A stretch of 22,366 bases of DNA, taken from a virus. Its lineage: Duplodnaviria > Heunggongvirae > Uroviricota > Caudoviricetes. A program made the translations under genes and the position numbers. Positions 363 through 19,296 of the stretch are shown here, one piece after another. Below the pieces are notes generated by a model, which did not search any database, was not told the DNA's origin, and worked only from the letters and a program-made list of their open reading frames with translations. Positions within the stretch are counted from its first letter, which is position 1, and each line of letters starts with the position of its first letter. The stretch lies in IMG/VR virus record IMGVR_UViG_2861079508_000002; one strand, given 5' to 3'.

Positions 363-650
363 TTACTGTCTCTGGCAATCTTTATCGCGATAACGCCTGA
401 AGTACCCTCTCGCTTCCTCATCCATACCAAGAGCCGAATGAGTCCGCTTAACTGCCTGTCTTAAATCTCCGAATCTGTCTGTAGTTGCTGGTGGGCGTGC
501 CGCCTTACGGATACATTCAGAGCGTCTGTTTGCTGCATGTTCACGTTCTTTATCGCCATCTGCCAGCATCATGACTTCTGCCCATCGTGCGGCAGCTCTC
601 CGGTATAGCCCTTTTGACTCCAGCTCTTCAGCTTTCCTGTCCCTTATCAT
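363..650 (-). CDS. PerC/Pch-family transcriptional activator-like protein (95 aa)
   Basis: ORF-track ORF; SD-like GAGAGG 5 nt upstream of the ATG. N-terminal LESKGLYRRAAARWAEVMM resembles the conserved PerC-family core as recalled from memory, not searched. Confidence 0.45.
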   Translation of the reverse strand: MIRDRKAEELESKGLYRRAAARWAEVMMLADGDKEREHAANRRSECIRKAARPPATTDRFGDLRQAVKRTHSALGMDEEARGYFRRYRDKDCQRQ

Positions 651-909: not shown

Positions 910-1353
910 ATGGTCTTTGCAATGAGCAAATCTAATCTGGTCGCGTTCCGCATCCCATCTGAATTGCAGGATGAGTTTAATCGGTCTGTTCTCGCTTCTG
1001 GAGGGGATAAAACCTCCTGGCTTGTTGATGCGATTCGCATGAAGCTGGGACAGCCGGAAAAGTCTATTGATTCACGAATGCTTGGGCTGGTGGAGCGCAT
1101 GGAAAAAGCCGCTGCGTCGCTTATTGCCGGAAAGCCGAACATCCCACCAAAGCCATATAACGAAACGGCAGTTATAAAGATCATTGCCGATACCATCCGA
1201 CAGGGATTTGATAATGGGCGTGTGATAGCGGAACGGCTCAATGAAGCAGGCTATCAAACAAAAGCTGGTAAAGCATGGGATAAAGACATTTACAGCGCGT
1301 GGAAGCGTCAGGGAAGCAATGCTGAAAAGTTATCAGTGGCCCTAAGAATGTAG
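910..1353 (+). CDS. ribbon-helix-helix (Arc/Mnt/CopG-like) DNA-binding protein with C-terminal extension (147 aa; alternative ATG at 922)
   Basis: N-terminal SNLVAFRIPSELQDEFNRSVLASGGDKTSWLVDAIRMKL fits a beta-strand/helix/helix RHH pattern like Arc/Mnt; adjacent repeat array fits RHH operators. No clear SD. Confidence 0.5.
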   Translation: MVFAMSKSNLVAFRIPSELQDEFNRSVLASGGDKTSWLVDAIRMKLGQPEKSIDSRMLGLVERMEKAAASLIAGKPNIPPKPYNETAVIKIIADTIRQGFDNGRVIAERLNEAGYQTKAGKAWDKDIYSAWKRQGSNAEKLSVALRM

Positions 1354-1369: not shown

Positions 1370-1747
1370 TTAGACGTGCTTGGAGAACAGGTAGCGTGCC
1401 ATCACTAAAACAATGCCAAAGACTTCAGCGAGGGTTCCCCCCATAAATAGGTTTATAACGAAATCACTAAAATGGAGCAGTTTTGCTCCAATAAGGACAA
1501 AAATCCCATTCATAACTAATAGCTGGCCTATCAGAATGCCGATAAACCACCGAGCAAACATTTTTTTCAGTTTTGTGTCTGTTTTTAAATCTTTTGTTTT
1601 TGCACGCTGATGGGCTTTGGCTGGATCCTCATCATTTAGATGTGTGAGGGTTTTTGCTGATGGTGATGAGCCAGAGGCTGGTTCACCTCTGGCTTGTCTT
1701 GCCGCTTGCTTTAGTTTTTCAGATATAGCGTAAGATCTAGACGTCAT
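1370..1747 (-). CDS. small membrane protein, basic hydrophilic N-terminus and two predicted C-terminal TM helices (125 aa)
   Basis: ATG at 1745-1747 lies 3 nt after the TGA of the upstream ImmA-like gene (translational coupling). Hydrophobic segments FIGILIGQLLVMNGIFVLIGA and LFMGGTLAEVFGIVLVMA. AT-rich. Confidence 0.5.
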   Translation of the reverse strand: MTSRSYAISEKLKQAARQARGEPASGSSPSAKTLTHLNDEDPAKAHQRAKTKDLKTDTKLKKMFARWFIGILIGQLLVMNGIFVLIGAKLLHFSDFVINLFMGGTLAEVFGIVLVMARYLFSKHV

Positions 1748-1750
1748 TAC

Positions 1751-2233
1751 TCATCGAAGCCCTAAATTCTTTAGGCGATAACGTATAGCATCATCGGATA
1801 CACCAAAATAGGAAGCCATCATTACTGGTGCATATCCTGCATTGTTGAGGCGTCGAACCTCTTTTTCTGGCATGAGAAGACATGCTGCAAAGTTATTGGC
1901 GAATATTTCTTCGCTGTCTACACCTTGGCTTGCCAGTTTTCCGCGGTAATCAACAAACTCATATTCAAGTGGCTGACCGTTCTCAGTTCGTTTGACGTAA
2001 TGCCCTAACTCATGCGCACACGTAAATCGTTTGCGCACGTTACTATCATTACGATTGAGTATGATTACTGGATCTTGTTCTGGCTCTTTCAGCAATGCGC
2101 CTGAAACATCATCATCAAGCGTGGTTTCAACAACATCCAACCCTAACTCATTGGCAATCCATACTGGATCAACCGGGAATTTCCTATCGCCCCAGATATC
2201 TTTCAAGAGGGCATGTGCAGATGTATTCGACAT
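1751..2233 (-). CDS. ImmA/IrrE-family (COG2856-like) zinc metallopeptidase (160 aa from the ATG)
   Basis: HEXXH motif in CAHELGHY, with a downstream acidic stretch typical of this family. The ORF-track start at 2239 is GTG; the ATG at 2231-2233 has GGAGG 5 nt upstream and is preferred. Confidence 0.7.
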   Translation of the reverse strand: MSNTSAHALLKDIWGDRKFPVDPVWIANELGLDVVETTLDDDVSGALLKEPEQDPVIILNRNDSNVRKRFTCAHELGHYVKRTENGQPLEYEFVDYRGKLASQGVDSEEIFANNFAACLLMPEKEVRRLNNAGYAPVMMASYFGVSDDAIRYRLKNLGLR

Positions 2234-2927
2234 GTTCACCTCCTTTGATTATGGTTAAATAGTCGAAATTTTCACCACTTCCCTTGTGGATATATTTACA
2301 TATAAAAGGTAACTAGTCACTAACCAACACAAATCTTTTTGAAGACAGATGGGGGGTGTTGAACGGTTTTTAAATGATTTCTTTGATTTTTAACAGCAAT
2401 AAGGAGCATTTTTAATGAAATTAGACGTTGATAATAACTTTTTGAGCAATCTTTACATATCATGGTAGCCTTCTATGCTGTTTTTCCAACTAAAAGATTG
2501 GCACATTTATCCGCTGGTAGTGGCGTTTTTTCGCCGCCAGCGCCTCTCTGGTTCCATTCCTTACATCTGTTCAAATTCAGCAACCCTTGCCGCGATCTTG
2601 CCGTTATCGAGAAGCTCTTTCGCTTTTCGGTTAATACTATCGGTCTTCATATTGCCAGCAGCATACGCCATCCGATAATTTCGATGCTACGCGCGCGTAC
2701 TTGTCGCAAAATATCAGGCAAAGGCCAGATTCAGAAAGTCGTGATAACCACCAGCACAACATGAGAGGTCATGTAACGCGATTTATCACACCAGATACAT
2801 GTGATTGGTGTACCCGCATAAAACATCGTCATAGCGCGTCCTGTGCGCATATACGCCGATAATCAACACATCACCACCACTCTGTCTTATGTAGAGAACA
2901 GTTTTATGGTGCTCCCCGCCATCGTGT

Positions 2928-2991
2928 GCGTACTGGTCGGACGCAGTTGCAAAAAATTTTGCAACTGATACCCCTCGCGCGCGTACTGGTC
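2928..2991. repeat. 11-bp inverted repeat CAGTTGCAAAA-aa-TTTTGCAACTG flanked by direct repeats GCGTACTGGTC
   Basis: Inverted repeat at 2944-2967; GCGTACTGGTC at 2928-2938 and 2981-2991; related GCGTACTTGTC at 2695-2705 and GCGTACTGTAA at 3061-3071. No convincing ORF with an SD covers the region. Confidence 0.5.
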
Positions 2992-3182
2992 ACGAAATTG
3001 GTGTTTTGCTGTGGCAGTGATATCAGAAAAATCTTCCTGTTTCACATAAAGCGGATATGCGCGTACTGTAACGACCCCATCAACGGGGATCGGATTTGAA
3101 ATCCCGACCCAAGCTATGTACCAAATGCCATGTCTTGGATATATGATGATTGCCATTCTAAACAACGCTAAAGGGGGTTGGT

Positions 3183-3797
3183 GTGAGCAGAAAAGATACT
3201 AAAGAATTGCTAACTATCTGCATGGTGTACTTTTCAATTTATTTTTGTGCATACATGATAGTCCCAGACGAGTTTGAACATGGCAGTATTATTTATTCCA
3301 TAACATTCTATTTTTTAGAGCTAACACCAATTTTGGCTATCCTTTTGGCAATACATATTTATTTTTCCTTAAAAAAAGAATCGACTAATTGGGAGAAGGT
3401 ATGGAGAGACAGAGGATTTCTAACATCACCTAAAGATGATGCATATGAGAGTGATTTTTCTGACTTTATAACAAACTACTACTCCAGCGAACAATTCAAA
3501 AATAGACTGTCTGATGTTTGGGAAACAGCAATGTATTCCATAGGGATTACATTATTGATACTTACTGGTATTGCTCAATATGTTTTTAACATTGACTTAT
3601 CATTAAATCCTGAAAATTTAATATCGCCATTGATTTTTGGTGAGATATTGATCTTCTCATTCGGAATTTTCTTGAGTGTTGTTCTCTGCTCATTATGCAA
3701 ACTACTGACTAACAGGTATCCAGGTGAAGCAAGGAGAGCAAGAAAGGCAAATCCATATTATCTTTTATTTCCTAATGGAGACAGCAGAGATATCTAA
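3183..3797 (+). CDS. AT-rich predicted four-TM inner-membrane protein (204 aa, GTG start)
   Basis: GGGGG SD 5 nt upstream of GTG at 3183. Four hydrophobic segments (about residues 10-28, 36-61, 116-135, 148-176). Markedly lower GC than flanking DNA; convergent with the ejection-like operon. Confidence 0.55.
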   Translation: MSRKDTKELLTICMVYFSIYFCAYMIVPDEFEHGSIIYSITFYFLELTPILAILLAIHIYFSLKKESTNWEKVWRDRGFLTSPKDDAYESDFSDFITNYYSSEQFKNRLSDVWETAMYSIGITLLILTGIAQYVFNIDLSLNPENLISPLIFGEILIFSFGIFLSVVLCSLCKLLTNRYPGEARRARKANPYYLLFPNGDSRDI

Positions 3798-3816: not shown

Positions 3817-4159
3817 TTATTGAGCTTCTTTTTGTGATGCCTGTGCGACTCTGGTGAGCGATTGTGTGACCGTACTGATCGCTCTGTCATATGCTGTGCT
3901 ACCTTTTGGCGTATTTGCCAGACGTAACAAGGCATTTCGTATAACAGGGCTTTCGTATGCCTTCGCTGCTCCGCCTACGGCACCAGCAGCAGGAACAACA
4001 AACGCAGCCGTTTTTAGCATCCCCGCTAATACTGCTGCGTTTATGATGCCACCACCAACTAACAATCCATAAAGCTGCTGACCATTTAAGTTTTGAACGT
4101 TCGCTTTTGCCGCGTGTCTTGTATCGTTGAGGTATTTAATAACGCCGTCCAGTTCCTTT
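3817..4159 (-). pseudogene. 3' fragment (about 111 codons) of the gene split by the IS66-family insertion
   Basis: ORF-track ORF 3817..4191 runs into the IS; its first 11 codons are IS-derived. Frame is continuous with 6686..8456 once the IS and one TSD copy are removed. Confidence 0.75.
4152..4159. repeat. 8-bp target-site duplication GTTCCTTT, left copy
   Basis: Identical octamer abuts both IS ends (4152-4159 and 6686-6693). Confidence 0.8.
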
Positions 4160-4244
4160 GTAAGCGTAAACCGACCGCCGTATGTAGCCATTAGACAAGA
4201 ATTGGTAACTTAGACGCCCATCTGACACAGACGGACATCTAAGT

Positions 4245-4664
4245 ATGGAATTACAGGACTGGCGAAAAGAACCTCGTAAAAAGTATTCGAATGAATTCAA
4301 ACTTCGTATGGTTGAACTGGCATCACAACCCGGTGCTTGTGTGGCCCAGATTGCTCGAGAAAATGGCGTCAATGATAATGTTATTTTCAAATGGCTCAGA
4401 CTCTGGCAAAACGAAGGGCGTATATCGCGGCGTCTTCCGGTAACAACCTCTTCTGACACTGGCGTTGAATTATTACCAGTGGAGATAACGCCGGATGAGC
4501 CGAAAGAACCGGTGGCTGCTCTTACTCCGTCTTTATCCACCCAGACTACTGTCAGTGCCAGCTCCTGCAAGGTGGAGTTCCGTCACGGTAACATGACGCT
4601 GGAAAATCCTTCACCAGAGCTGCTCACTGTGTTGATCCGTGAACTGACCGGGAGGGGACGATGA
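4245..4664 (+). CDS. tnpA: IS66-family accessory protein TnpA (Orf1), 139 aa
   Basis: First ORF of the IS; overlaps the next ORF by 4 nt; size and position typical of IS66 orf1. Confidence 0.85.
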   Translation: MELQDWRKEPRKKYSNEFKLRMVELASQPGACVAQIARENGVNDNVIFKWLRLWQNEGRISRRLPVTTSSDTGVELLPVEITPDEPKEPVAALTPSLSTQTTVSASSCKVEFRHGNMTLENPSPELLTVLIRELTGRGR

Positions 4665-5011
4665 TCTCACTCCCGTCAGGCACCCGCATCTGGCTCGTTG
4701 CCGGCGTTACCGATATGCGTAAATCCTTCAACGGACTGGGAGAACAGGTACAGCATGTGCTGAATGATAATCCCTTCTCCGGTCACCTGTTCATCTTCCG
4801 TGGCCGACGGGGTGACACGATTAAAATCCTGTGGGCTGATGCTGATGGTCTGTGCCTGTTCACCAAACGCCTGGAGGAAGGCCAGTTTATCTGGCCTGCG
4901 GTACGTGACGGCAAGGTATCCATTACCCGTTCGCAACTGGCAATGCTCCTCGATAAGCTGGACTGGCGTCAGCCAAAAACATCCCGTCTTAACGCACTGA
5001 CAATGTTGTAA
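4661..5011 (+). CDS. tnpB: IS66-family TnpB (Orf2), 116 aa
   Basis: Second ORF, ATGA overlap with orf1; size and sequence character typical of IS66 Orf2 (recalled). Confidence 0.85.
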   Translation: MISLPSGTRIWLVAGVTDMRKSFNGLGEQVQHVLNDNPFSGHLFIFRGRRGDTIKILWADADGLCLFTKRLEEGQFIWPAVRDGKVSITRSQLAMLLDKLDWRQPKTSRLNALTML

Positions 5012-5041
5012 AAATGTCATGGCCGGATTATAAAAACGGTC

Positions 5042-6655
5042 ATGAGTCAGAAATACCTCATTCGGATCACTGAGCTGGAAAGGTTGCTCTCTGAGCAGGC
5101 TGAAGCCCTCCGTCAGAAAGACCAACAACTGAGTCTGGTTGAAGAGACGGAGGTCTTCCTGCGTTCTGCGCTGGCACGTGCCGAAGAAAAGATCGAAGAA
5201 GATGAGCGGGAAATAGAGCATCTGCGGGCCCAGGTGGAAAAACTGCGCCGGATGCTGTTCGGTACCCGTTCTGAAAAACTGCGTCGTGAAGTTGAACAGG
5301 CTGAAGCCCTGCTGAAACGACGCGAACAGAACAGCGATCGTTACAGCGGGCGTGAGGATGACCCGCAGGTTCCCCGCCAGTTGCGACAGTCGCGTCATCG
5401 TCGCCCGTTACCGGCGCATCTGCCCCGCGAAATAAACCGCCTGGAGCCAGAAGAAAGCTGTTGCCCGGAGTGTGGTGGTGAGCTGGATTATCTGGGGGAA
5501 GTCAGCGCAGAACAACTGGAACTGGTGAGCAGCGCCCTGAAAGTGATCCGCACAGAACGGGTAAAAAAAGCCTGTACAAAATGTGACTGCATCGTTGAAG
5601 CACCGGCACCGTCCCGTCCGATAGCGCGTGGTGTCGCGGGCCCGGGGTTACTTGCCCGCGTGTTAACGGGAAAATACTGCGAACACCTGCCACTGTATCG
5701 TCAGAGTGAAATCTTTGCCCGTCAGGGTGTCGAACTGAGCCGTGCGTTACTCTCCAACTGGGTTGACGCGTGCTGCCAGTTAATGACGCCGCTGAATGAT
5801 GCCCTGTACCGTTACGTGATGAACACCCGCAAGGTTCACACTGATGACACACCAGTAAAAGTGCTGGCACCGGGCAGGAAGAAGGCGAAAACAGGATATA
5901 TCTGGACGTATGTCCGGGATGACAGGAATGCCGGTTCGCCAGAGCCTCCGGCGGTCTGGTTCGCCTACTCACCGGATCATCAGGGGAAACATCCGGAGCA
6001 GCACCTTCGTCCCTTCCGGGGTATCCTGCAGGCAGATGCGTTTAATGGCTACGATCGGCTGTTCAGTGCCGGACGTGAAGGCGGCGCGTTGACGGAAGCA
6101 GGATGCTGGGCTCATGCGCGACGTAAAATCCACGATGTATATATCAGTACCAAAAGCGCGACAGCGGAAGAAGCCCTGAAACTAATCGGTGAACTGTACG
6201 CCATCGAGCACGATATACGCGGGTTACCGGTGTCTGAACGCCTGGCGGTCAGGCAAATGCAGAGTAGACCGCTCCTGACTTCCCTGTATAAGCTGATGCA
6301 GGAGAAAGAACACACGTTATCGAAGAAATGTCGTCTGGGAGATGCGTTCCGGTATATCCGGAAGCACTGGGCTGCGTTGTGCAACTTCTGTGATGATGGC
6401 CTGGCTGAGGTAGATAATAATGCCGCAGAAAGAGCGCTTCGTGCAGTCTGTCTCGGGAAGAAAAATTATGTGTTCTTCGGCAGCGATCACGGTGGCGAGC
6501 GTGGAGCACTGTTGTACGGGCTGATCGGCACCTGCCGACTGAACGGTATAGATCCGGAAGCGTATCTGCGCCATATCCTGGGTGTACTGCCGGAATGGCC
6601 TTCCAACCGTGTTGACGAGCTCCTGCCATGGAACGTAGCACTCACCAATAAATAA
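5042..6655 (+). CDS. tnpC: IS66-family transposase TnpC (Orf3), 537 aa
   Basis: Large third ORF with N-terminal coiled-coil-like region, Cys cluster CPECGG...CTKCDC and a long catalytic domain; ends 30 nt before the right IR. Confidence 0.9.
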   Translation: MSQKYLIRITELERLLSEQAEALRQKDQQLSLVEETEVFLRSALARAEEKIEEDEREIEHLRAQVEKLRRMLFGTRSEKLRREVEQAEALLKRREQNSDRYSGREDDPQVPRQLRQSRHRRPLPAHLPREINRLEPEESCCPECGGELDYLGEVSAEQLELVSSALKVIRTERVKKACTKCDCIVEAPAPSRPIARGVAGPGLLARVLTGKYCEHLPLYRQSEIFARQGVELSRALLSNWVDACCQLMTPLNDALYRYVMNTRKVHTDDTPVKVLAPGRKKAKTGYIWTYVRDDRNAGSPEPPAVWFAYSPDHQGKHPEQHLRPFRGILQADAFNGYDRLFSAGREGGALTEAGCWAHARRKIHDVYISTKSATAEEALKLIGELYAIEHDIRGLPVSERLAVRQMQSRPLLTSLYKLMQEKEHTLSKKCRLGDAFRYIRKHWAALCNFCDDGLAEVDNNAAERALRAVCLGKKNYVFFGSDHGGERGALLYGLIGTCRLNGIDPEAYLRHILGVLPEWPSNRVDELLPWNVALTNK

Positions 6656-6685
6656 GTATCAATACGGCACTCCGTTAACGCTTAC

Positions 6686-6693
6686 GTTCCTTT
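6686..6693. repeat. 8-bp target-site duplication GTTCCTTT, right copy
   Basis: Identical to 4152-4159. Confidence 0.8.
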
Positions 6694-8456
6694 CCATGTA
6701 CGCCTTTAAAGAAAGTTGCTGATTGCTTCCTGTTCCGGTGTAACGCATTAATAAACTTCTCAACACTGATATTTCCAGACGGATCAGTCGCCTTATCTAC
6801 AGCATTCTGAACTATGGCTGCTCGTGCGTTTTGCCTACCATTGTCATCCAGAAGCCTGTAAAGCTGAGAACGTTCTGATGGGCTTTGGCTAAAAACGAGT
6901 TTTGTTACATCCTCAGGCGTGGCCTTGCCGCTGGCTATTGCCTTTTGAACGCGCGTTCTTCCCATCATGTCATTGAATTTAGACCATGAGCGATCAACCC
7001 TTGCCATATTAATGGCTTCGTCTGCTCCAAGATTTTTGGCTACGGCTTTTTTCATATCCGCCGTATATGCCTTATAGATAATATCGCTGGCTTTCTGGAG
7101 CGTATCTTTATCAACAGTGTCAGATGACGCCATAAATCGCTTTCGAAGATCGGTTCTGTTTTCCCTCGCCAGACGCAGGTCATTTGGTCCGCTGGTGATA
7201 TCGTCTTTAAATTGCTGCAAGACTTTTACCGCGGCTCTATCCTGAGATTTACCCGGGCGGCTTAACACGGCAATCTGATTGTCGATAGCTTTTACCGTGT
7301 TTGAGAGATCGACAGGGGTATCCCCCATAGCGTCAATTATGCGGTTATATCGCTTTCCTGCTGCCTCAATGAATTTTTGTTGCCCTTTAGTCGCAGATTC
7401 ATAAAGCTGTTTATCAGAAATGCCACCCAGACCATCGCTAAATGTTCTGACTAAATTTTCTCGTGCTTGTTGTTGATTCAGCCGATTCTTACCGGTTCCA
7501 AAAAAAGGAACTCTTTCGCCTAATGTCTGAGCCTGACTCTGCATAAAGGTTTTATCTTTCAGCATGTCACTGGTCATTAACGGCAGATTTCTTTCCGATG
7601 CAAAGTCGACAGCAGCCTTTGCTTCAGGCGACATATCACCACGAACAGCCCTCGAAACCGCACTCGCTGTATTTTCCAGCCCCTTACCAATACCACCAAT
7701 GCCAGCAGAAATTACCGTTTGTAACGGATCAATATCTTCTCCACCAGCGAGGCTGGTGGCTCCCTGTAGTGCTAAATCTGTAGCTGCTGATTTCCCTATG
7801 GCCCCCAGCACCGTTCCGGCCCTGCCCGCTGGTGTAAACGCCAGCGCATTAGCCAGAAACGATGCCACGTCTTGCGGCGATAAACCCGGCTTGTTCAGAG
7901 CATAATCACCGGATGGCAGGGAAACGATAGTGTTACCCTTCTCATCCTGCCTTAATTTCGCTCCCATGCTCTGAAGAATCTTTTCCTGAGATGCGTCAGA
8001 GCCGAAAAGTTGAGACCATCGAGCTTTTAGAGCATCCATGCTGAGTGAGGTTAACTCTGGGGCAAGGTCGACATTTTGCAGTCTCTCCATCTCTGGAGTC
8101 ATTCGGCTTTCGCCTGTTATAGCATCGCGCATCGCAGCCCCAAGGCTGGCTCCCTGTTCTGCTGAACGCTCAAGCCCCTCTCTTTGCTGAGTAGCTAACT
8201 TTGCATACCCTGACGCAAGAGAATTATCAGATGATGTATGTTGAATATTTTGAGTTGCTGATTGGGATCGGTCTATTTCATTCGTTGATGGTAGTGGATA
8301 GGCAGCATAAAAAGCCTGCTTAGCCTGCTCTACACTTTCTCCGGCTTGCGGGGCCACGACTTCATTGAAGTATTGCTCCTGAGCCTGCGCTTTTTGTTCT
8401 GGTGCTAACGCCTGATACTGTGGAGAGGCGATAACATCTTTCCATGCTTTAGCCAT
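6686..8456 (-). pseudogene. 5' fragment (about 590 codons) of the IS-disrupted gene; large Gln/Ala-rich virion/ejection-like protein (P22 gp16-position)
   Basis: ORF-track ORF 6675..8456; its last 3 codons and stop are IS sequence. Start overlaps the upstream stop as TAATG at 8454-8458. Confidence 0.7.
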
Positions 8457-9877
8457 TAATCACCCCATAGTGAAGAAAAGTTACTGCTGGCTGCTGGCTG
8501 TGATACCTGCTCAGATTGCGGCAATGTCTGCGACGAAGAAGAAGTTCCTCTGTCAACTGCTAAAATAACCCGCAAAGCATCATAAGCTCGACCAGAAGCA
8601 GCTTTCAGCGAATTGAACTGGTTTTCCATCTTCCGGCGCTTGGTATCAATGGTTTTTGTGGAGTCGCCAGGCTGAGGGAAATACATTTGATAATATTTTG
8701 ACATTTCAGCAGGTACGATAGCTGCCCCTGTTTCCTGACGGAGTATTGCCATTATTGCGTCATTAGCATTAACAACGTATTGCTGCTCTGTTGGGCTGAG
8801 CGTTAAGTTAGCCAGCGTCCCATTACCCAAAGCATTATTAATGACCGCCACTCGCTGTGGGCTAAGCTGGTCTTTCAGTGTATCTATTGAATCAAGAGCA
8901 TCCCTAACCCTGTATGCAAATCCAGCAGCTTTTTTAGCCCCTTCTGGCGACTTTTCCATGATCTTTTGGGCTGTTGGCAAAGCTATTGGACGAAATCCAT
9001 CTCCAGATATTGGCTGGTTTAGTTTTCCCTGCTCTTCACTTCCGTCTGTGTAGTATTTTGTGACAGTGCCATCATCGTTTTCTCTAACACTCATTAATTT
9101 TTTGGCGTTTGTATTAATTCCAGCCGCTGCCGCAAATGCCGCCGCCCCCTCTGGATCCGCCTTTAACATTTGAGCGTACTGATTGTAATTCTGCATTGCT
9201 GCTGTTGGTGCATATGCTGACGTTAACGCATTTGCTCGGCTAATATCCTGCCCTCTCGCCTGAAGTGCTTCGCCAGCCTGATTGCTGCGGATTGTCTCTG
9301 CCAACTTGCCACGCTCAATATCCCGACCTTCCATTTGATCTTTGATATCGAAATACTTCTCATGACCGAGAGAAAACAGTGCCATACTACCAGCAAGCCG
9401 CTGGAACCCCTGTGGATCATTAACATGCATTTCGGCAACAGACTCAGGAGAAATTCCCAAGCGACGCATTTCATCTTCGTTATCTGCTATGAATTTTCCA
9501 AATGCCCCAGTTCCGAGCGAAGATGCGATTTGAGCACTAGTCGCAAGATGACCAATAGAATTTCTCTGGTCGTCATCAATAAAGCCCATCCCTTTCTGAA
9601 CGCTTTCAAATTCTTCTGGATACTCAGAAATAAGACTGCGCATTTTGTTTCTGTCTCCAGACTCAAAAGCCCCGGCATATGCTTTCTGAAACTCTGCTTT
9701 ACGCTGTTGTTGACGTGCCTGCTGATTAATCTCAGCAACGCCTCTTAGCCCCTGTAGCGCCATTAAACCTACGTTTGGCTGCTGCTGATACTGCACAGGC
9801 TGAGGAACGGAAGAACGAGGAGCATTATCATTTTGCGGTGCCATGCTAGGCAGCCCGCCAAGTTGCCATGTCGCCAT
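8456..9877 (-). CDS. 473-aa protein, candidate P22 gp20-like ejection protein
   Basis: Translationally coupled at both ends (TAATG). Size matches P22 gp20 (471 aa, from memory); Gln/Ala-rich. No profile search done. Confidence 0.5.
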   Translation of the reverse strand: MATWQLGGLPSMAPQNDNAPRSSVPQPVQYQQQPNVGLMALQGLRGVAEINQQARQQQRKAEFQKAYAGAFESGDRNKMRSLISEYPEEFESVQKGMGFIDDDQRNSIGHLATSAQIASSLGTGAFGKFIADNEDEMRRLGISPESVAEMHVNDPQGFQRLAGSMALFSLGHEKYFDIKDQMEGRDIERGKLAETIRSNQAGEALQARGQDISRANALTSAYAPTAAMQNYNQYAQMLKADPEGAAAFAAAAGINTNAKKLMSVRENDDGTVTKYYTDGSEEQGKLNQPISGDGFRPIALPTAQKIMEKSPEGAKKAAGFAYRVRDALDSIDTLKDQLSPQRVAVINNALGNGTLANLTLSPTEQQYVVNANDAIMAILRQETGAAIVPAEMSKYYQMYFPQPGDSTKTIDTKRRKMENQFNSLKAASGRAYDALRVILAVDRGTSSSSQTLPQSEQVSQPAASSNFSSLWGD

Positions 9878-10554
9878 TAGAATCCAAGCCCCCCAACAAG
9901 ACCAATAAGCCCACCACCAATAGCGCCGGCCGCAGTTCCTATTCCAGGAACAACGGAACCAAGTTGCGCACCCGCTAAAGCGCCTGATGCTGCCCCACCA
10001 ATACCACGCGCAAGACTGGATGGCTGCTGCGCCTGACCTGCACGAATAGCGCCAAGCCCCTGCAAGAGTTGTCCGGTATTATTGGCGTAGTTTTGCCCTG
10101 CCGTTGCCTGCCCTGATGCCGCATTCATCCCGACATTTAGCAGGTTTCCATAATTTTGCATTTGCCCACTAAGCCAATTGTTATAAAGCATGGGCGCAAT
10201 GGAAGATAACTGGTTACTGGTAGCTGTTGAGCCAAGCCCCCCGGTAGCTTCTGCTGAGACAAGGTTCTGATAACGGGCCTGATCTGCCTGTGTTTTATAT
10301 AAACCAGAACCAAAGAAATCATTCGCGGCTTTATTCTGCCCTTCCAGAGTCATCAGTCCTTGTAGTTGTTGTAAAGCAGGCAATCCGACTTCTGCATACG
10401 GCTTGAGATTATTCATCACCGTATTCCACTGCTCGCGCTGCAAATCAATTGCCTGCTGCTGGGCCTTCGCCTGAGCTTTAGAGGCACCACCATCACCGCC
10501 TTTTTCGTATACGGCACGATTGAGATGTTTATGAGCTATATGGGTAATTAACAT
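9877..10554 (-). CDS. 225-aa Gly/Ala/Gln-rich protein with glycine-zipper-like C-terminus, candidate P22 gp7-like ejection protein
   Basis: Start overlaps the upstream stop (ATGTTAA). N-terminal YEKGGDGGASK and C-terminal GIGGAASGALAGAQLGSVVPGIGTAAGAIGGGLIGLVGGLGF; size close to P22 gp7 (229 aa, recalled). Confidence 0.5.
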   Translation of the reverse strand: MLITHIAHKHLNRAVYEKGGDGGASKAQAKAQQQAIDLQREQWNTVMNNLKPYAEVGLPALQQLQGLMTLEGQNKAANDFFGSGLYKTQADQARYQNLVSAEATGGLGSTATSNQLSSIAPMLYNNWLSGQMQNYGNLLNVGMNAASGQATAGQNYANNTGQLLQGLGAIRAGQAQQPSSLARGIGGAASGALAGAQLGSVVPGIGTAAGAIGGGLIGLVGGLGF

Positions 10555-11009
10555 TCGCTGAATTCCTTATATTGTTGCCGAGTTAACTGATAAAGCGTTA
10601 CGCCGACGGGTTTACCACATCTGATATAAGCATCATCAAGGTGACCAACACGGGTAGCGCCAAGCAAACGGATAATTGCCCGTCCGTATTTCGTGGTGTC
10701 AGGAACCATGGTAATGCTGTTAAGGAATGGTGAGTTTTCGAGAAGCCATTTGCAGAATAATCGATGCCCTTGCAGTGCATATTCACCACGGAATCCGGGG
10801 TCGTACACCGCATGGCATTCAACAACGCTATGCCAGAAGTTACGCACTTCATGAACGCCAGCCAGCACCAATCCTTCGTAGATGCCGAGATATACCGCAT
10901 CAGGCTTGATGTAGTACGTGTGCCCCGGCTCAACAATATTTTCGGTATTGGCAGGCTCGTTAAGAAAGGCCTGTAATCGCACCGGGTTATCAATAAATTT
11001 TAGTTCCAT
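10548..11009 (-). CDS. 153-aa protein, first large gene of the operon (P22 gene-14 position)
   Basis: ATG at 11007-11009 with GGATGG about 10 nt upstream; stop overlaps the next start. Assignment by synteny only. Confidence 0.45.
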   Translation of the reverse strand: MELKFIDNPVRLQAFLNEPANTENIVEPGHTYYIKPDAVYLGIYEGLVLAGVHEVRNFWHSVVECHAVYDPGFRGEYALQGHRLFCKWLLENSPFLNSITMVPDTTKYGRAIIRLLGATRVGHLDDAYIRCGKPVGVTLYQLTRQQYKEFSEC

Positions 11010-11026
11010 GCGGTGCCATCCATTTT

Positions 11027-11188
11027 CACATACAGCCTGCCAGCGCCTTATCTATTAACCCTCGTGCAATTTCATGCAGAGTTGGCGCTACTCCAATTCC
11101 TGATTTTTTACGCTGCTCTTCCTGAATTTTCTTTATCGCTTCCATTTGCTTCTCACTTATCAATACCGGCTTTACTGAAATAGCCATA
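11027..11188 (-). CDS. 53-aa small protein, possible RHH/Arc-type regulator (below the ORF-track size cutoff)
   Basis: My own translation MAISVKPVLISEKQMEAIKKIQEEQRKKSGIGVAPTLHEIARGLIDKALAGCM; GGGGG SD 4-5 nt upstream of the ATG; TGA lies 16 nt before the next ATG. Minus-strand TATAAT at 11221-11226. Confidence 0.35.
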
Positions 11189-11280
11189 ACGCCCCCTTAG
11201 AACTGTATAAAACAACAGTTATTATAGTTTCACAAATCGCAATATTCATCATCGTAATTGCAAAATATGAAACAAATAGC

Positions 11281-11315
11281 ACAAAAAAATGCCACCGCTC
11301 AGTAGCTGGTGGCAT
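11281..11315 (-). terminator. Rho-independent terminator (8-bp stem ATGCCACC/GGTGGCAT, 11-nt loop, T6-7 run on the minus strand)
   Basis: Plus strand AAAAAAATGCCACCGCTCAGTAGCTGGTGGCAT; hairpin then T-run when read on the minus strand. Separates the primase island from the ejection-like operon promoter. Confidence 0.55.
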
Positions 11316-11681
11316 CGTTCTGTGTGTCAGGTTTTGACAGGTTTTTTATGGACTCTAAAAACTATATTTATGGTATCGCATTACTCTTCACGGCAGGCGC
11401 TTTTCAGTTCTGCCCTTGCTTCTGGCTCCATTGGTAATTTGATTCGCGATCAGCTATGCGGATGGTTTGCTGAACAGGCATAACAACATCTCAGAGGCTA
11501 TTTTTTGAACTACGAAAATTTCGTAGGTCTCTCCTTCAAAAACGTCACGCCCTTGTACACTGGATTTTACAAAAGTCTCGTAAAACTCTTTCCTGTTCTG
11601 GGCTATGTGCCAAACCGCAGCGAATACCTCCGTCTGCCAGATGAGCAAAACATACCTTATAAAGAAAATCGCTGTTTTTGC

Positions 11682-11786
11682 TGTACCACCTGTACCACCA
11701 TGTCACAAACCCTTGTGTGGCGCGGCCTGTAGGTGGTACAGGTGGGTAAAAATGACCTCTCCCCACCTGTACAGACCTGTACCATT
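11682..11786. repeat. iteron-like cluster B: direct and inverted copies of core GGTGGTACAGGT
   Basis: ACCTGTACCACC at 11688-11699 (partial TGTACCACC at 11682-11690), GGTGGTACAGGT at 11732-11743, partial inverted copies near 11765-11772 and 11776-11785. Immediately after the stop of gene 11790..12527. Confidence 0.6.
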
Positions 11787-11789
11787 TAT

Positions 11790-12527
11790 TTAATTTTTAC
11801 CCATAGCAGCACATAATCCCTTTTTTGAAATATTGAAAAATGCGTTCATTCTTCCCGCTGGCTTAACCTTGTAGCCGCTTGCCACCATCGCCGCAATAAA
11901 TGCTCCGTTGGGGATATAGTGCGGGTGATCACTGTGCTGGTGGTTTATCTGGTTATATCGCTCCACTTCATGCTTCAACGTGTCAGATGTGGGGTTATCC
12001 TGCGGGAAGCTCTCAATCTGGGCATTACTCATCCCGTTGTCTCTGATCCATCTCAGGCAGCTTTTCGCCGATACGATAAATGACGGGTTATCAAGCGGGT
12101 TTTCCCAGTCCGCATTCCGGTTGTGGAGCGCCAGTCCGTCAAGGTTAAATTGTGGGTATTCAGCGGTAATTACTGTCACTGCGTGGCGGATTTCAGTCTC
12201 GTCACAACATGGCTCATCTCCCACACCAGCAGGGTAATAATCTGAACCACCGGGACTGATACAGCGTTTACCACTGAAAGGCCATTGCTTCGCCATTTCG
12301 GGTGTTGAGTGATTACCGTCGCTCCGTTCGCGCTGTGCCTCTGTCCACTGGCTGGCATATTCAGTAAATGAAACCCTTTGCCCCTGGCGCATCCAGTGCG
12401 CAATCATAATTAAAGTGCGTTCCAGACTTTGGATGTCGCCAGCATTCCCGCACTGTGTAGCGAAACTTTTTAATTCTTCGCGCTCCGTTCTGGTCATTCC
12501 CTGCGGTATGCAATAGTTATTGTTCAT
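11790..12527 (-). CDS. 245-aa hypothetical protein (Cys/His-containing)
   Basis: ORF-track ORF; ATGA overlap with the upstream 78-aa gene; bracketed by iteron clusters. No recognisable motif by eye. Confidence 0.55.
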   Translation of the reverse strand: MNNNYCIPQGMTRTEREELKSFATQCGNAGDIQSLERTLIMIAHWMRQGQRVSFTEYASQWTEAQRERSDGNHSTPEMAKQWPFSGKRCISPGGSDYYPAGVGDEPCCDETEIRHAVTVITAEYPQFNLDGLALHNRNADWENPLDNPSFIVSAKSCLRWIRDNGMSNAQIESFPQDNPTSDTLKHEVERYNQINHQHSDHPHYIPNGAFIAAMVASGYKVKPAGRMNAFFNISKKGLCAAMGKN

Positions 12528-12760
12528 GTTTTACCTCTCTGTTTTACCTCTCTGATTTCTGCTGCCATATCTGTTGGCTCTATACAGCCGTCCCGACTTG
12601 CCACGCAGGGAATAATGATTTCAACGGTATCGCCGTCAATACACATTTCAACATTCGCCCATGCCGCAATGGGTAGCCAGTCTGAACGCCCCTCAAACCG
12701 TAGCTGCCAGCCAGAGGAAGAAGCTAACTGGCGCACTTTGTAAAATGGTGTGCTCATCAT
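12524..12760 (-). CDS. 78-aa hypothetical protein
   Basis: ATG-ATG start at 12755-12760; coupled to the 245-aa gene. The intergenic region upstream holds iteron cluster A. Confidence 0.5.
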   Translation of the reverse strand: MMSTPFYKVRQLASSSGWQLRFEGRSDWLPIAAWANVEMCIDGDTVEIIIPCVASRDGCIEPTDMAAEIREVKQRGKT

Positions 12761-12801
12761 TGGTTGTTCCCTCTCAGCCAGCCAGAAGAAATGCGTTTGT
12801 T

Positions 12802-12907
12802 AATGGTATAGGTGGTACAGGTCTGGTATAGGTAAGATATTGACCTGTACCACTATAACGCACTGTTTTTAATACTGAATTAGCAAAATGGTATAGGTGG
12901 TACAGGT
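12802..12907. repeat. iteron-like cluster A: exact 21-mer AATGGTATAGGTGGTACAGGT twice plus an inverted copy between
   Basis: 21-mer at 12802-12822 and 12887-12907; partial copy 12825-12834; inverted ACCTGTACCACTATA at 12843-12857. Between the primase stop (12937) and gene start (12760). Confidence 0.65.
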
Positions 12908-12936
12908 AAAAACGTTCTTCTTGTAAAAAGACTATA

Positions 12937-15291
12937 TTAAAAAACATCATAACCCCCCATACCGATCAGACGTGCAAACGCAGCCTGTAGAACTCCGACC
13001 TCTGGTAGTTCGTAGAACACGCCATTCCCACGGTCTGGTCTTCCATGCTTCACCAGTCCCATTTGTGCAAGTGATTTACCCAGTAGTGATCTGGCTGCTG
13101 GTTCTTTAAGCTTTTCCCCACGCTCAAGCGACCACGCTACAAATCGACTAACCATATCCTTTGCAAACAAACGGACTTCGCCATTAAACGGAGGTTCATT
13201 GATTAGCTCGCCATAAAGAAACAATTCAACGCCAGACAGCCCCAGCAAGATTTCTTCACGTAAGGCATCGGTCTGTGGCGCTCGTTGAGGGTCAAAACCT
13301 GAGAGATCCACCCCTTTAAGATGCCAAAGCAACTTTGCGGCACCGCCATCATTAAGCCAACTGTACAGCCGATCAAAATACTCCCGGCTCTGTGCTTTTT
13401 CAGGAGATGGCTCAAGCACGAGATAGCGGCGCTCTCTTATCCCTGCCTGTAATACCTGTGTGCTGTTACTGGCAAATATCAACCGGGCAAAATTCGGCAT
13501 TGGTTCAGCATCAATTCCCTTGCGCTCAAGGTTAAACGTCGGTTCGCTAATAATCGCTTTAAGTCTGTCAGCTTCAGACGGCTTGTGGATCGTCACTTCG
13601 TCAGCAAATACCAGTAGCTTGTTAGCAAGTATTGAATTGAAGCGCCCTGAAATATGTCCCGCCCCGTTAATGTGGGCGGCGTACTGCCCCAGTATTTGCA
13701 GCAGCGGTTTAACCGTTGTGCCTTTCCCTGTGCCCGGGACAGATTTCATCACGATTGCCACGGACGGTTTTTCATCAGGCTTTTGGATAATGTGCGCCAT
13801 CCACTGGATAAGATATTGGTATGCCTCTTCATTACCGGCACAGACAACCTGCAACAGGTGATTAAGGTATACCGTGCAATCTCCTTCAATTGGTTCCAGT
13901 GCCAGCCCCTCATACAGATTAAAAACATCGTCAGGGCATTTGTCTGGTACTGGATAAAATCCTACGCCTCCTGGCTTGTAGTTCTTCCCACTCCATGACA
14001 GCCACGCCGATCCCGCCAGCTTTCTGGCGACTCTCGGTTTATGATGAAAATAATGCTGAAATTGTGATAAATCCTCGAAAACGTGCGATACACCGCCGGT
14101 TTGAGAAGGCTTTAGCGACACCACCTTGTGTTTCCCGCCGATGGTGACATGCGTAAACGTCCGGTTGATTTCTTCGAGGACAGCAATTTCATCATCGCTT
14201 AACACCTCGCCAGAACTGATCTCATTCAGCGCCCCGACTGACTGTTTGTGATTTTTCACCTGCGCCCCTTTCCCCCGTGGCTGGTACATCGAATCTTTAA
14301 ATGCTGCTGTGGCTGCCGCCAGCCCGTGTTGTTGGTGATAGTCGTTCCAGTCGGCTTTATAGTCAGTCGGTGGCAGAGACACCCAGCCAGCTACGGAAAT
14401 AGCGGCCCTCTCTGCGGCATCTTTCCCCGTGTTGATCCCTCCACTTTCGGAGTTTCCTTGCTGGTGATCGTTATCTGCGGCAATGATGATTTGTGCCTGT
14501 GGATATGTTCTGCGCATGACTTCCGCTACTGGCAACAGGTTGCCAGCGTCGATTGCTGCCACTGTCATTGCGTCAGGGCGAATTAAATGGCACGACAGGG
14601 CGGTAGCCACCCCCTCAGCAATTATGATGCTGTGAGGTCGTTTCTGTGCGTTTATGGCGTGATATGCCCCCCGCTTTGCTGAACCTGTCAGGAGTCTTTT
14701 TTCACCATGTGAGGTAATTGTCTGTGCTGCTGTGACTGCGCCGGATTTATCCACCAGCGCCAGCAACAGAGATCCATCGGGCAACACGGGGAATGTAAAA
14801 TCACCTACCCCTTTCGCAACCAGATAATCAGATTTGCCGTTTACAGCCTTTCTGCGCATGTCATCAAACTGACGGGAAAACGTATCCCGTCTTTGTTGTT
14901 CGTCCTTCTCTGCCCTTTTCAGGCGCTCCTGTTCGCGTCGCTGGCGCTCGGTTTCCAGTTGTTCCCGTTTCTGGCTGGTGGCTTCTGGTGTTTCCGTTGT
15001 CCGGTAATCAATACCCAGAACATCAGCGGCAAGCAGCGCCGCCTCTGTTGTGTCGCAGTTATTTACGCGTTTAATTAAATCCAGCCCATCACCAGCGCCG
15101 CACTGATTACAGATGAAGCTACCGCGCCCGTTGTCATCGAACCGGAATCGATCTTTGCCCCCACATGCAGGGCAGGGAGCATGACGGCGCGGAGAGTCAG
15201 GGACATTTATGTTCAGGCAGCCCAGCACATGAGGCCAGTTGTTTTCAGACGCACTGATAACCTGACGGATAAGATCAATGTTTCGCATCAC
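12937..15291 (-). CDS. P4 alpha-type primase-helicase (784 aa)
   Basis: N-terminal Zn-ribbon CPACGGKDRFRFDD...CNQCGAGDG; central toprim-like region; C-terminal Walker A VPGTGKGTT. Architecture typical of P4 alpha / PICI Pri-Rep proteins. GTG start at 15291, ATG one codon later. Confidence 0.9.
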   Translation of the reverse strand: MMRNIDLIRQVISASENNWPHVLGCLNINVPDSPRRHAPCPACGGKDRFRFDDNGRGSFICNQCGAGDGLDLIKRVNNCDTTEAALLAADVLGIDYRTTETPEATSQKREQLETERQRREQERLKRAEKDEQQRRDTFSRQFDDMRRKAVNGKSDYLVAKGVGDFTFPVLPDGSLLLALVDKSGAVTAAQTITSHGEKRLLTGSAKRGAYHAINAQKRPHSIIIAEGVATALSCHLIRPDAMTVAAIDAGNLLPVAEVMRRTYPQAQIIIAADNDHQQGNSESGGINTGKDAAERAAISVAGWVSLPPTDYKADWNDYHQQHGLAAATAAFKDSMYQPRGKGAQVKNHKQSVGALNEISSGEVLSDDEIAVLEEINRTFTHVTIGGKHKVVSLKPSQTGGVSHVFEDLSQFQHYFHHKPRVARKLAGSAWLSWSGKNYKPGGVGFYPVPDKCPDDVFNLYEGLALEPIEGDCTVYLNHLLQVVCAGNEEAYQYLIQWMAHIIQKPDEKPSVAIVMKSVPGTGKGTTVKPLLQILGQYAAHINGAGHISGRFNSILANKLLVFADEVTIHKPSEADRLKAIISEPTFNLERKGIDAEPMPNFARLIFASNSTQVLQAGIRERRYLVLEPSPEKAQSREYFDRLYSWLNDGGAAKLLWHLKGVDLSGFDPQRAPQTDALREEILLGLSGVELFLYGELINEPPFNGEVRLFAKDMVSRFVAWSLERGEKLKEPAARSLLGKSLAQMGLVKHGRPDRGNGVFYELPEVGVLQAAFARLIGMGGYDVF

Positions 15292-15646
15292 CGTACCCCA
15301 CGTGGTCTATAGCGTTTGCGATATGGCTAACCAGCATCTGCCACTTGGTTATTCCGTAATCAGTCAGCATGCCATCATTGTTTAGCCACATATCAAATTC
15401 AGCGGTTGTCGCAAGTTTCCACTTATCGCCGTGGACAGTCCTCATTGCTGGGTACATGAATGCGCAAATCAGATCACAAACATCTGACGGCTTCAGAGAT
15501 GTAGTAATGGTGCGTCCCTCTGGCGTCTGAATTGCCATTTTCTCTTCACCAGTAGAATGAAGGTTATGAATCCACACAGCACCAGCAATCTTTGCCACCT
15601 GCTCTCCGATTGCGGAGCTAAGCGCCATTTCTGCATTTTCACGCAT
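15275..15646 (-). CDS. 123-aa hypothetical protein
   Basis: ATG with GGGAGG upstream; overlaps the primase start by 17 nt. Confidence 0.5.
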   Translation of the reverse strand: MRENAEMALSSAIGEQVAKIAGAVWIHNLHSTGEEKMAIQTPEGRTITTSLKPSDVCDLICAFMYPAMRTVHGDKWKLATTAEFDMWLNNDGMLTDYGITKWQMLVSHIANAIDHVGYGDAKH

Positions 15647-15980
15647 GAGAACCTCCCGCTACAGTTGCGCCCATGTCATTAACCATGCTTTGCCATATCT
15701 CACGCCCGACGTCAGTCAATCCGTCCTTAGTGACGCAACGCTCAATAAGCTCGATCCCCACGGTTTCCCACTGCGGGTAGAACACTTTCATGGCTGCCAG
15801 TGTGTAGCTATCGATCAGGCTGCGAACGCCTTTTACTCCATTGACGATTTCCACACGTACGGCCTCGCCGTCCGCATCAACCATGAAATAGTCCCCTCCG
15901 CTGGTGGAGGTAATGTGGTTATACAGTGCCGACGCATACTTATTTGCCAGCGCATTCAGTCGGAAATTTTTAGTAATCAT
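15639..15980 (-). CDS. 113-aa hypothetical protein
   Basis: ATG at 15978-15980 with GAGGA 7 nt upstream; stop overlaps the next gene start. Confidence 0.5.
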   Translation of the reverse strand: MITKNFRLNALANKYASALYNHITSTSGGDYFMVDADGEAVRVEIVNGVKGVRSLIDSYTLAAMKVFYPQWETVGIELIERCVTKDGLTDVGREIWQSMVNDMGATVAGGSHA

Positions 15981-15990
15981 GGTTCCATCC

Positions 15991-16593
15991 TCAGTGCGTC
16001 ACTGGTTCCGATGGCATGCCGTTTTCATTCAGTTCAGCTATAAAGCTGTTGTGAAGTTCAGCAAGCGTTTCACGACCAAATGGAGTCAGTGCTCCTTGTT
16101 CCACATCCATCATGGCTCTGTAGAAAATGATGGAGCGTTCTGTGCCAGACTCGATGCCAAAACGTTCTATCATCGCGCCCTCAATGTTGTTTGCCATAGC
16201 GAGGCGCTCTGCTACTGGATACAGCGGCATGGCAACGATGCCGTTGGAATAAACAGCCACTTCGGAAGGATTGCCAGTATCATCAATGATGCTGACAGTG
16301 CCGTTTTCCTCTCTCATTTCCAGCATGAATACTGTTGCGATCAGCCATCTCCACATAATGACGTTATGCTGTGATGTGTAATCGAAATATCCCTGGTTGC
16401 CGCCATCGGCTATAGCGAGATGTATTGACATACCTTCATCTGGTTTATCGTCATAATCCCCGGCATCCAGACGATTTACGGCATCAATATATGAGACGGC
16501 CTCAACGCGTTCTGTCATGCCATCGTTGCTGCGGCACATGATGTTTACGCCGTCAGGCGTTGCTTCTGCATGGAAAGTTAAGAAATTATTCAT
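15991..16593 (-). CDS. 200-aa hypothetical protein (preferred ATG at 16593; ORF track extends to 16698)
   Basis: The ATG at 16591-16593 forms an ATGAATAA overlap with the stop of the upstream ORF; the longer track version would overlap that ORF by about 110 nt. Confidence 0.5.
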   Translation of the reverse strand: MNNFLTFHAEATPDGVNIMCRSNDGMTERVEAVSYIDAVNRLDAGDYDDKPDEGMSIHLAIADGGNQGYFDYTSQHNVIMWRWLIATVFMLEMREENGTVSIIDDTGNPSEVAVYSNGIVAMPLYPVAERLAMANNIEGAMIERFGIESGTERSIIFYRAMMDVEQGALTPFGRETLAELHNSFIAELNENGMPSEPVTH

Positions 16594-16807
16594 GTTTCGC
16601 CTCGCCTGAATGATTCTGTAACTCATATTTGCCCAACAATTCGTCCGCTTCCTGAATAGCTTCTGGTACGCCATTGAGCAGTGACATAACCGCGCCAATC
16701 ATTAACTTGTCTCTGTTGCTTGGGCTGGCCCCTTCAAGCCAGAACCCTAAAACAGTCTGAACCTGTTCAATGCGACATTGCGCTTCAATGAGCTGGATGT
16801 TGGTCAT
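16586..16807 (-). CDS. 73-aa hypothetical protein
   Basis: ORF-track ORF, coupled to neighbours by overlapping stop/start. Confidence 0.45.
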   Translation of the reverse strand: MTNIQLIEAQCRIEQVQTVLGFWLEGASPSNRDKLMIGAVMSLLNGVPEAIQEADELLGKYELQNHSGEAKHE

Positions 16808-17067
16808 TTCGCACTCTCCACATCGATTAAACTGATATCTATCAGGGAGGTAACTTTTTGTAGCCAGCTATTGATTACTGTCGCCTGTTCCCCTCCCACC
16901 GAGGGAATAATCTCATTCATCACATGAACCAGACCTGTGCGCGCTCTGGTAAGCCGTTCAGTCGCGCAATCTGCGGGAGTGAATGTGTCTGGATATGGCT
17001 CTTCGCGCCCCAGCAATGATTCAATTTCCAGCTCACACGGATGACGATAAATTAAGTTGATATTCAT
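16804..17067 (-). CDS. 87-aa hypothetical protein
   Basis: ORF-track ORF, ATGA-type overlaps at both ends. Confidence 0.45.
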   Translation of the reverse strand: MNINLIYRHPCELEIESLLGREEPYPDTFTPADCATERLTRARTGLVHVMNEIIPSVGGEQATVINSWLQKVTSLIDISLIDVESAK

Positions 17068-17258
17068 TTTTCACCACCAAGAATTACCAGCTCTGCACGG
17101 GCATCGTTAACCAAAGATGAGCACGCTTTAATCGCATCCACGACATCAGCAGCGTCCATTTCTTCAGCCGAAAGACTGACAGCAACCAGGACAGCCGCTG
17201 CTTGCTCGATTAATTGAAGTGCGGACGTAAGGCGAGGGGTATTAATTGAGTTATTCAT
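17064..17258 (-). CDS. 64-aa hypothetical protein (preferred ATG at 17258; track start 17315 is GTG)
   Basis: ATG at 17256-17258 has GGGGG about 7 nt upstream and forms an ATGAATAA overlap with the upstream stop. Confidence 0.45.
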   Translation of the reverse strand: MNNSINTPRLTSALQLIEQAAAVLVAVSLSAEEMDAADVVDAIKACSSLVNDARAELVILGGEK

Positions 17259-19284: not shown

Positions 19285-19296
19285 TTTCAGTCTCCG

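Follow-up and report, generated by a model that had tools for sequence, protein, structure and literature searches.

We examine here two adjacent genes at positions 1370 to 2233 of a stretch of 22,366 nucleotides, which is called the window below. The first gene to be read codes for a peptidase and the second for a small membrane protein. We will argue that the two genes probably form an autonomous toxin-antitoxin/phage-defence cassette of the RosmerTA family, in a minimal form like the pair RmrA_D25/RmrT_D5 of Gordonia phage Kita. We infer that the E. coli proteins would act like the Kita pair, and that the peptidase would target the cytoplasmic tail of its partner, under a control that would be lifted by infection.

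The starting point was a sequence-only reading of the window, the title of which stressed a membrane protein in place of the usual HTH partner of ImmA-like peptidases. The pair is less novel than this title implied, because the arrangement has already been described as RosmerTA. The pair thus belongs to a described class, and it is the enterobacterial member itself, here that of E. coli, which is uncharacterised so far. In RefSeq the two products are named "ImmA/IrrE family metallo-endopeptidase" and "hypothetical protein", and a literature search for the accessions of either protein found no citing paper. With the assignment, a gene pair whose toxin gene no PADLOC model recognises can be labelled by function. 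The E. coli copy could also serve as a native-host model of how a peptidase with no DNA-binding domain restrains, and upon infection releases, a membrane-depolarising toxin.

Organisation of the gene pair

The features on which the discussion is based are the following.

910-1353, plus strand: convergent gene for a 147-aa protein, 16 bp from the module, with a ribbon-helix-helix look by eye
1370-1747, minus strand: rmrT-like gene for a predicted membrane-depolarising toxin of 125 aa (RefSeq WP_000204054.1)
1394-1462, minus strand: membrane helix 2, residues ~96-118, with invariant G104, T105 and E108 (hydropathy, conservation, AlphaFold2)
1481-1549, minus strand: membrane helix 1, residues ~67-89, with invariant Q75 and near-invariant N80 (hydropathy, conservation, AlphaFold2 helix 42-87)
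1562-1591, minus strand: juxtamembrane motif D53-x3-D57-x2-L60-K-K62, just N-terminal to helix 1 (alignment A1)
1748-1750, minus strand: spacer of 3 nt (gta) that separates the stop codon TGA of the peptidase from the ATG of the membrane protein
1751-2233, minus strand: rmrA-like gene for a predicted antitoxin, a standalone 160-aa M78/ImmA-family zinc peptidase (stop codon at 1751-1753)
1907-1909, minus strand: codon of Glu109, the predicted third ligand of the peptidase (conservation)
2000-2014, minus strand: codons of the zinc-binding/catalytic motif HELGH, with His74, Glu75 and His78 (read from the sequence; conservation)
2239-2244, minus strand: Shine-Dalgarno sequence of the peptidase gene, AGGAGG, 5 nt before the ATG (read from the sequence)
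2245-2500, minus strand: AT-rich upstream region, presumed to bear the promoter, ~32% GC, with one weak sigma-70-like match at 2275-2248

The junction reads TGA-gta-ATG, exactly as expected from the earlier statement that the 125-aa protein begins 3 nt after the peptidase. From the stop of the peptidase gene to the start of the membrane-protein gene there are between -4 and +15 nt in 47 of 48 homologous loci, with a median of 0.5, and this tight spacing suggests translational coupling. The module and the region upstream of it had both been called AT-rich, and their GC contents are indeed 43.2% and, for 2234-2500, 31.8%, compared to 47.6% for the whole window. Scans for promoters, terminators and repeats near the module gave nothing above chance: five sigma-70-like hexamers were found upstream, compared to 6.3 expected, and a search for an operator or inverted repeat upstream of the peptidase found none that was convincing.

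The peptidase

The longest open reading frame of the peptidase covers 1751-2239, with a GTG start two codons above the ATG, while RefSeq (WP_000072645.1) starts at the ATG at 2233, which gives the 160-aa protein considered here. It matches Pfam Peptidase_M78 (PF06114) with an E-value of 9.6e-20 and 71 bits (cutoff 22), over positions 2-123 of the 123 in the profile. Among the PADLOC models, that of capP (4.9e-25) scores better than those of RmrA (down to 9e-14). The capP match spans positions 5-150 of 242 only, and the RmrA models are matched in their peptidase segment alone, roughly positions 165-292. The NCBIfam spr1629 model gives 36 bits, compared to a cutoff of 335.

An AlphaFold2 model of the peptidase has a pLDDT of 88. 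Its top Foldseek matches in the PDB are CapP (7t5t), IrrE/PprI (3dte and 8sln) and an M. tuberculosis M78-domain regulator, all with a probability of 1.0 and a query-normalised TM-score of 0.6-0.67. These targets are 240-330 aa long, and the target-normalised TM-score is ~0.4. The fold is thus that of the M78 family, and the description of the protein as an ImmA-like peptidase with an HEXXH motif is confirmed. Judged from its sequence, the 160-aa protein is a bare catalytic domain that has neither an HTH nor a C-terminal regulatory/sensor domain.

The catalytic residues H74, E75, H78 and E109 are at least 98% conserved among 43 homologues and invariant in an alignment of 36 sequences (A2), and Glu109 lies in the usual context E-x2-A-N-x-F-A-x2-L-L-M-P. 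Because of this strict conservation, catalysis and not merely binding seems to be under selection.

The membrane protein

The partner has an N-terminal tail that is variable, basic and disordered, followed by a conserved membrane hairpin of two helices at the C-terminus. With 14 K+R and 7 D+E, the first 62 residues of the protein are net basic. In the AlphaFold2 model, helices run over residues 42-87 and 95-122, the pLDDT of the hairpin is near 80 and the N-terminus is disordered. The earlier description of a basic N-terminus with two C-terminal TM helices therefore agrees with composition, hydropathy and model alike.

We collected 60 homologues of close to moderate similarity, and an exhaustive profile search of the family yielded 1489 cluster representatives at E<=1e-3. 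The N-terminus differs in both sequence and length within the family, whereas the last ~65 residues are highly conserved, including D57, Q75, N80, G104, T105 and E108. In the juxtamembrane motif, D57 and L60 are invariant and D53, K61 and K62 are at least 90% conserved (alignment A1), and this motif is a candidate docking or cleavage site.

The protein matches phrog_5346 at 6.7e-23, and has no match in the Pfam, PADLOC or NCBIfam models. A Pfam search of the family members with long N-termini for a sensor domain found none. Another option considered was a holin or other phage lysis protein. This was rejected, as there is no Pfam match and lysis genes adjoin the membrane gene in a single locus only.

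Homology to the Kita pair

We now come to the evidence that connects the pair to a system studied by experiment. When the peptidase was compared by tblastn with the phages of GenBank, a match was found to gene 32 of Gordonia phage Kita, the product of which is 43% identical over 160 aa (full length), with an E-value of 3e-44. The next gene of this phage, gene 33 (119 aa), overlaps gene 32 by 4 nt. The same tblastn search with the membrane protein found nothing, and its link to Kita gp33 required profile methods. An alignment of the membrane family compared to gp33 by hhalign gives a probability of 75% and an E-value of 2.5e-5 over the whole hairpin. An HMM of the family (~190 members) finds gp33 with 37.9 bits and an E-value of 2.8e-10, as the sole off-family match among 3857 ORFs, and plain phmmer gives 3e-4. 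Among the aligned residues are the invariant Asp before helix 1 and the Asn within this helix, and in helix 2 the motif T-x2-E-V-x-G; the Glu of helix 2 (E108) is also present in gp33.

Kita gp32 and gp33 are RmrA_D25 (YP_009301393.1) and RmrT_D5 (YP_009301394.1) of Ernits et al. 2023 (PMC10440598). According to that study, RmrT_D5 on its own blocks growth, with translation, transcription and replication all abolished, and it depolarises and permeabilises E. coli membranes on a par with polymyxin B. RmrA_D25 neutralises it, although incompletely, and AlphaFold predicted no complex for the pair (pDockQ 0.05). The operon protects E. coli against a few BASEL Myoviridae, namely Bas54 and either Bas59 or Bas60, since text and figure legend disagree on this point (PMC10440598). 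The earlier guess of a protease plus membrane effector, acting in abortive infection or toxin control, is supported by this homology.

Rosmer was defined by Millman et al. 2022 as the pair of a toxin whose function is unknown and a Zn-peptidase as its antitoxin. In the presence of the E. coli E101 Rosmer system clpP becomes essential, and with RipAB/spr1629-1630 of S. pneumoniae it is clpX; in other Rosmer systems rmrA is essential or undeletable. The possibility that the E101 system is the same pair as ours was rejected, as its toxin gene lies upstream and the accessions are different.

If the membrane family as a whole is recognised as being of the RmrT_D5 type, the annotation of RosmerTA would be widened considerably, since this family is large and present in many phyla and in prophages.

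Pairing across genomes

The sequence-only reading had proposed a survey of co-occurrence, which shows the downstream reading frame to be a strictly conserved partner of the peptidase. Scanning one genome per species gave 30 loci of the membrane family, which span Gamma- and Betaproteobacteria, Nitrospirota, Desulfobacteraceae, a Bacillota MAG and Balneola. In all 30 of them a peptidase homologue (E-values of 1e-29 to 1e-63) is located directly upstream on the same strand. The same is true for the 15 loci with full-length membrane-protein matches on viral contigs (15/15). Starting instead from the peptidase, a gene of the membrane family was found downstream of 4/4 homologues (~50-53% identity, on long contigs). 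Both genes are hence present in 49/49 independent loci, a pairing far beyond chance.

The surroundings of the pair, on the other hand, are not conserved. All-against-all clustering of the neighbour genes found nothing common to the loci beyond the two module genes themselves. Ten upstream genes were examined with Pfam, and among the upstream genes are ppiD-, thiDE-, phoA-, gltX- and rpoD-like ones as well as a Mu portal gene. Many copies of the module sit amid housekeeping genes and not in defence islands. We also searched with Pfam for a conserved third gene or HTH among the 86 immediate neighbours at 33 non-redundant loci, and no DNA-binding family is enriched there; the commonest family is phage integrase, at 3 loci. 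Strict pairing together with unrelated flanks means that the pair is an autonomous, mobile two-gene cassette.

The absence of an adjacent HTH gene, which had been claimed for the window, holds insofar as no HTH partner is conserved. It is less certain for the convergent 147-aa gene, which resembles a ribbon-helix-helix protein by eye, with weak database support from phrog_30270 (E-value 2.6e-4) and a sub-threshold Pfam HTH_62 match; a sequence search of the PDB with this protein gave nothing. The gene is present in sister islands that do not have the module and is absent from all foreign loci, and it is for this reason considered to be island backbone and not a partner of the module. The 147-aa protein was accordingly rejected as the substrate of the peptidase.

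A repeat array was observed upstream of this gene, in the divergent intergenic region 685-811 between perC (363-650, minus strand) and the 147-aa gene. Three tandem 9-bp units of GTTGGTTCA at 687-715 are followed by three inverted copies, TGAACCAAC, at about 757, 778 and 799. The array is likely an operator or iteron array for an island regulator.

Two related arrangements are worth describing. A second enterobacterial variant of the module is found in lambdoid prophages near the Q antiterminator region (IMG/VR loci L038-L044, and L034, which is Escherichia phage vB_EcoM-705R4, ON470624.1, whose record stops right after the peptidase gene). Here the peptidase has 55% identity, and the membrane protein, of the phrog_5346 type, is longer (201 aa). 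The Peduovirus P2 variant NC_070905.1 (L035, 31040-32216) carries a standalone M78 peptidase with 36% identity in the P2 cargo region, and 212 nt further a 159-aa protein that is outside the membrane family. This latter pair is consistent with partner swapping among Rosmer-like pairs.

The host island in E. coli

The window belongs to the E. coli chromosome, and 68 complete genomes match bases 1300-2500 across 80% or more of this length. The module is present in 68 of 5426 complete E. coli genomes, always as a single chromosomal copy and with an identity of 99.5-100%, while its flanks are found in many more E. coli genomes than the module itself. The host is an integrase-bearing island of ~20 kb between yicC and yicG/dinD, whose genes include the P22-type DUF2824, gp7, gp20 translocase and gp16-like genes as well as primase-helicase, Ash, AntA and PerC. 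Genes for a capsid or tail are absent from the window. In sister islands the slot of the module is either empty or occupied by a 325-aa AbiD protein (PADLOC E-value 6e-58), and this alternation of module, AbiD and empty slot is the signature of a defence-cargo hotspot. The module is thus accessory cargo in the defence slot of a P22-related integrative island, and it marks this slot as one for RosmerTA or AbiD.

A number of further observations were made on the island. Region 6675-22366 contains the integrase, an HTH gene, AntA, Ash, the primase-helicase (Zn-ribbon, Toprim, DUF5906) and a P22-type ejection block, and no capsid, tail or lysis genes were found in it. The island has the appearance of a P22-related element, satellite-like or strongly reduced, in which only the ejection proteins have been kept. 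An IS66-family element of 2526 bp occupies 4160-6685 (ORFs 4245-4664, 4661-5011 and 5042-6655), with an 8-bp target duplication on its two sides (4152-4159 and 6686-6693). It interrupts a 701-aa gene, of which ORFs 3817-4191 and 6675-8456 are the remnants; this gene is intact in strain 723_010814_2_1 and annotated as P22-gp16 family in one sister island.

Adjoining the ejection block at 3183-3797 (plus strand) is a gene for a 204-aa multi-pass membrane protein, with a weak SieA-like match (phrog_7745, E-value 1.9e-4) and no support from Pfam, PADLOC or NCBIfam. In the gene order of P22, sieA comes after gene 16, and the position of the 204-aa gene corresponds to that of sieA. The short ORF MAYAAGNMKTDSINRKAKELLDNGKIAARVAEFEQM at 2561-2671 (minus strand) resembles by eye the N-terminus of a phage small terminase subunit. 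It lies within 2240-3180, a region of ~940 bp without annotation that gives the impression of decayed phage DNA. Finally, the part of the window with the highest AT content (35-38% GC) contains a 321-aa ORF beside the integrase (20046-21011, minus strand). Pfam, PHROG and PADLOC gave no match for this ORF, which may be a further cargo gene.

Proposed mechanism and alternatives

In the mechanism that we propose, the two genes would be co-transcribed and translationally coupled, as suggested by the 3-nt gap and the conserved tight spacing. The two-helix hairpin would bring the 125-aa product into the inner membrane, both termini probably facing the cytoplasm, and the product would oligomerise via the invariant or near-invariant polar residues within the helices (Q75, N80, T105 and E108). 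By analogy with the Kita homologue, the toxin would then depolarise or permeabilise the membrane. The catalytically intact M78 peptidase would neutralise it, and the likeliest route for this may be that it binds or cuts the cytoplasmic N-terminal tail or the juxtamembrane motif. Phage infection would upset this balance, and the freed toxin would arrest or kill the infected cell before phage release.

It should be stressed that direct binding or cleavage of the toxin is put forward as a proposal only, because neutralisation in the Kita pair is partial and AlphaFold gave no complex (PMC10440598). We consider it possible, although doubtful, that the membrane toxin is the direct target of the M78 peptidase, which would cut the cytoplasmic tail or juxtamembrane motif. 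If this is true, the widespread subclass without an HTH would be the first ImmA-family protease with a pore-forming membrane protein, and not a transcription repressor, as its natural substrate, and infection would be sensed via lost or inhibited proteolysis.

The same components could also work in the opposite sense, with the membrane protein as an inactive pro-form whose variable N-terminal tail is trimmed when the peptidase senses infection, akin to the protease-activated bacterial gasdermins. The signal could be ssDNA, as for CapP and IrrE. The strictly conserved catalytic site is in line with such an activation, since proteolysis rather than binding alone has apparently been selected, and so is a tail that is variable and disordered whereas the juxtamembrane motif is invariant. 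The nearest solved structures are moreover those of the signal-activated proteases CapP and PprI, and a PprI entry holds ssDNA. We nevertheless judge proteolytic activation to be quite improbable, as the full-length Kita toxin is toxic alone and the peptidase lowers this toxicity (PMC10440598), and as rmrA cannot be dispensed with in other Rosmer systems, being essential or undeletable there. The 160-aa peptidase also does not have the C-terminal sensor domains of CapP and IrrE.

Two other scenarios were considered. The pair might be a plain addiction/stabilisation module, or a regulated membrane stress/lysis switch, of mobile elements, with no role against phages. The two-gene cassette does move alone, often beside integrases and prophage genes, and many copies lie amid housekeeping genes outside defence islands. 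However, the Kita homologue defends against phages (PMC10440598), the E. coli slot alternates with AbiD, and no endolysin or lysis gene is a conserved neighbour, which makes this scenario unlikely. In the other case, the peptidase would be a classical ImmA-type anti-repressor that acts on a DNA-binding repressor encoded elsewhere; examples would be the 147-aa protein and a repressor of the island or of a prophage. The membrane protein would then serve as an anchor or accessory only. The M78 fold is common to ImmA, IrrE and CapP, a possible ribbon-helix-helix gene lies convergently 16 bp away, and the island carries the regulators AntA and Ash. This reading is highly improbable given that no DNA-binding family is enriched among the 86 immediate neighbours at the 33 non-redundant loci, and that the 147-aa gene is missing from all foreign loci and present in module-free islands. 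The hairpin moreover bears invariant polar residues and is homologous to a proven toxin.

Comparison with known systems

The closest relative is the Kita pair. In both cases a standalone M78 peptidase comes first and a small protein with a C-terminal hairpin second, with a tight or overlapping junction; the sizes are 178/119 aa in Kita and 160/125 aa in E. coli, and both pairs are carried by mobile elements. With respect to the Kita-type subclass (NetFlax D25 antitoxin and D5 toxin), the membrane protein shows the expected homology to the RmrT_D5 hairpin. The differences are that Kita is a phage of Actinobacteria whereas the E. coli pair resides in a chromosomal island of Enterobacteria, and that the two membrane proteins are ~25% identical, with a remote homology limited to the hairpin and unrelated N-terminal tails. 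Furthermore, the Kita pair is known from experiment, while that of E. coli is known here from its sequence.

Common to the pair and to canonical RosmerTA, which has a role in phage defence or as toxin-antitoxin, are an M78 zinc-peptidase antitoxin and a variable toxin of otherwise unknown family; the partner gene is adjacent and co-oriented, and the two genes move together as one unit. A typical RmrA has ~360-400 aa and an N-terminal XRE-type HTH, whereas this domain, which is typical and not universal, is absent from the E. coli peptidase. RmrA_D25 of Kita, an accepted member of RosmerTA, has no HTH domain either. Gene order and toxin families also differ, the toxin gene of E101 being located upstream.

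With ImmA/ImmR, IrrE(PprI)/DdrO and CapP/CapH the peptidase shares its M78 fold and its HExxH + Glu active site. In contrast to these systems, it has no linked gene for an XRE/HTH substrate, and the conserved partner is a membrane protein. The C-terminal regulatory/sensor domain of IrrE and CapP is likewise missing from the 160-aa protein. Panacea (PanA) with toxins such as PanT_D11 (Kurata 2022, Ernits 2023), finally, also combines a soluble antitoxin with a small toxin, and this toxin too has a cytoplasmic N-terminal region followed by membrane helices, with depolarisation as its toxic activity. The antitoxin folds are unrelated, however, being DUF4065 in Panacea and an M78 peptidase here.
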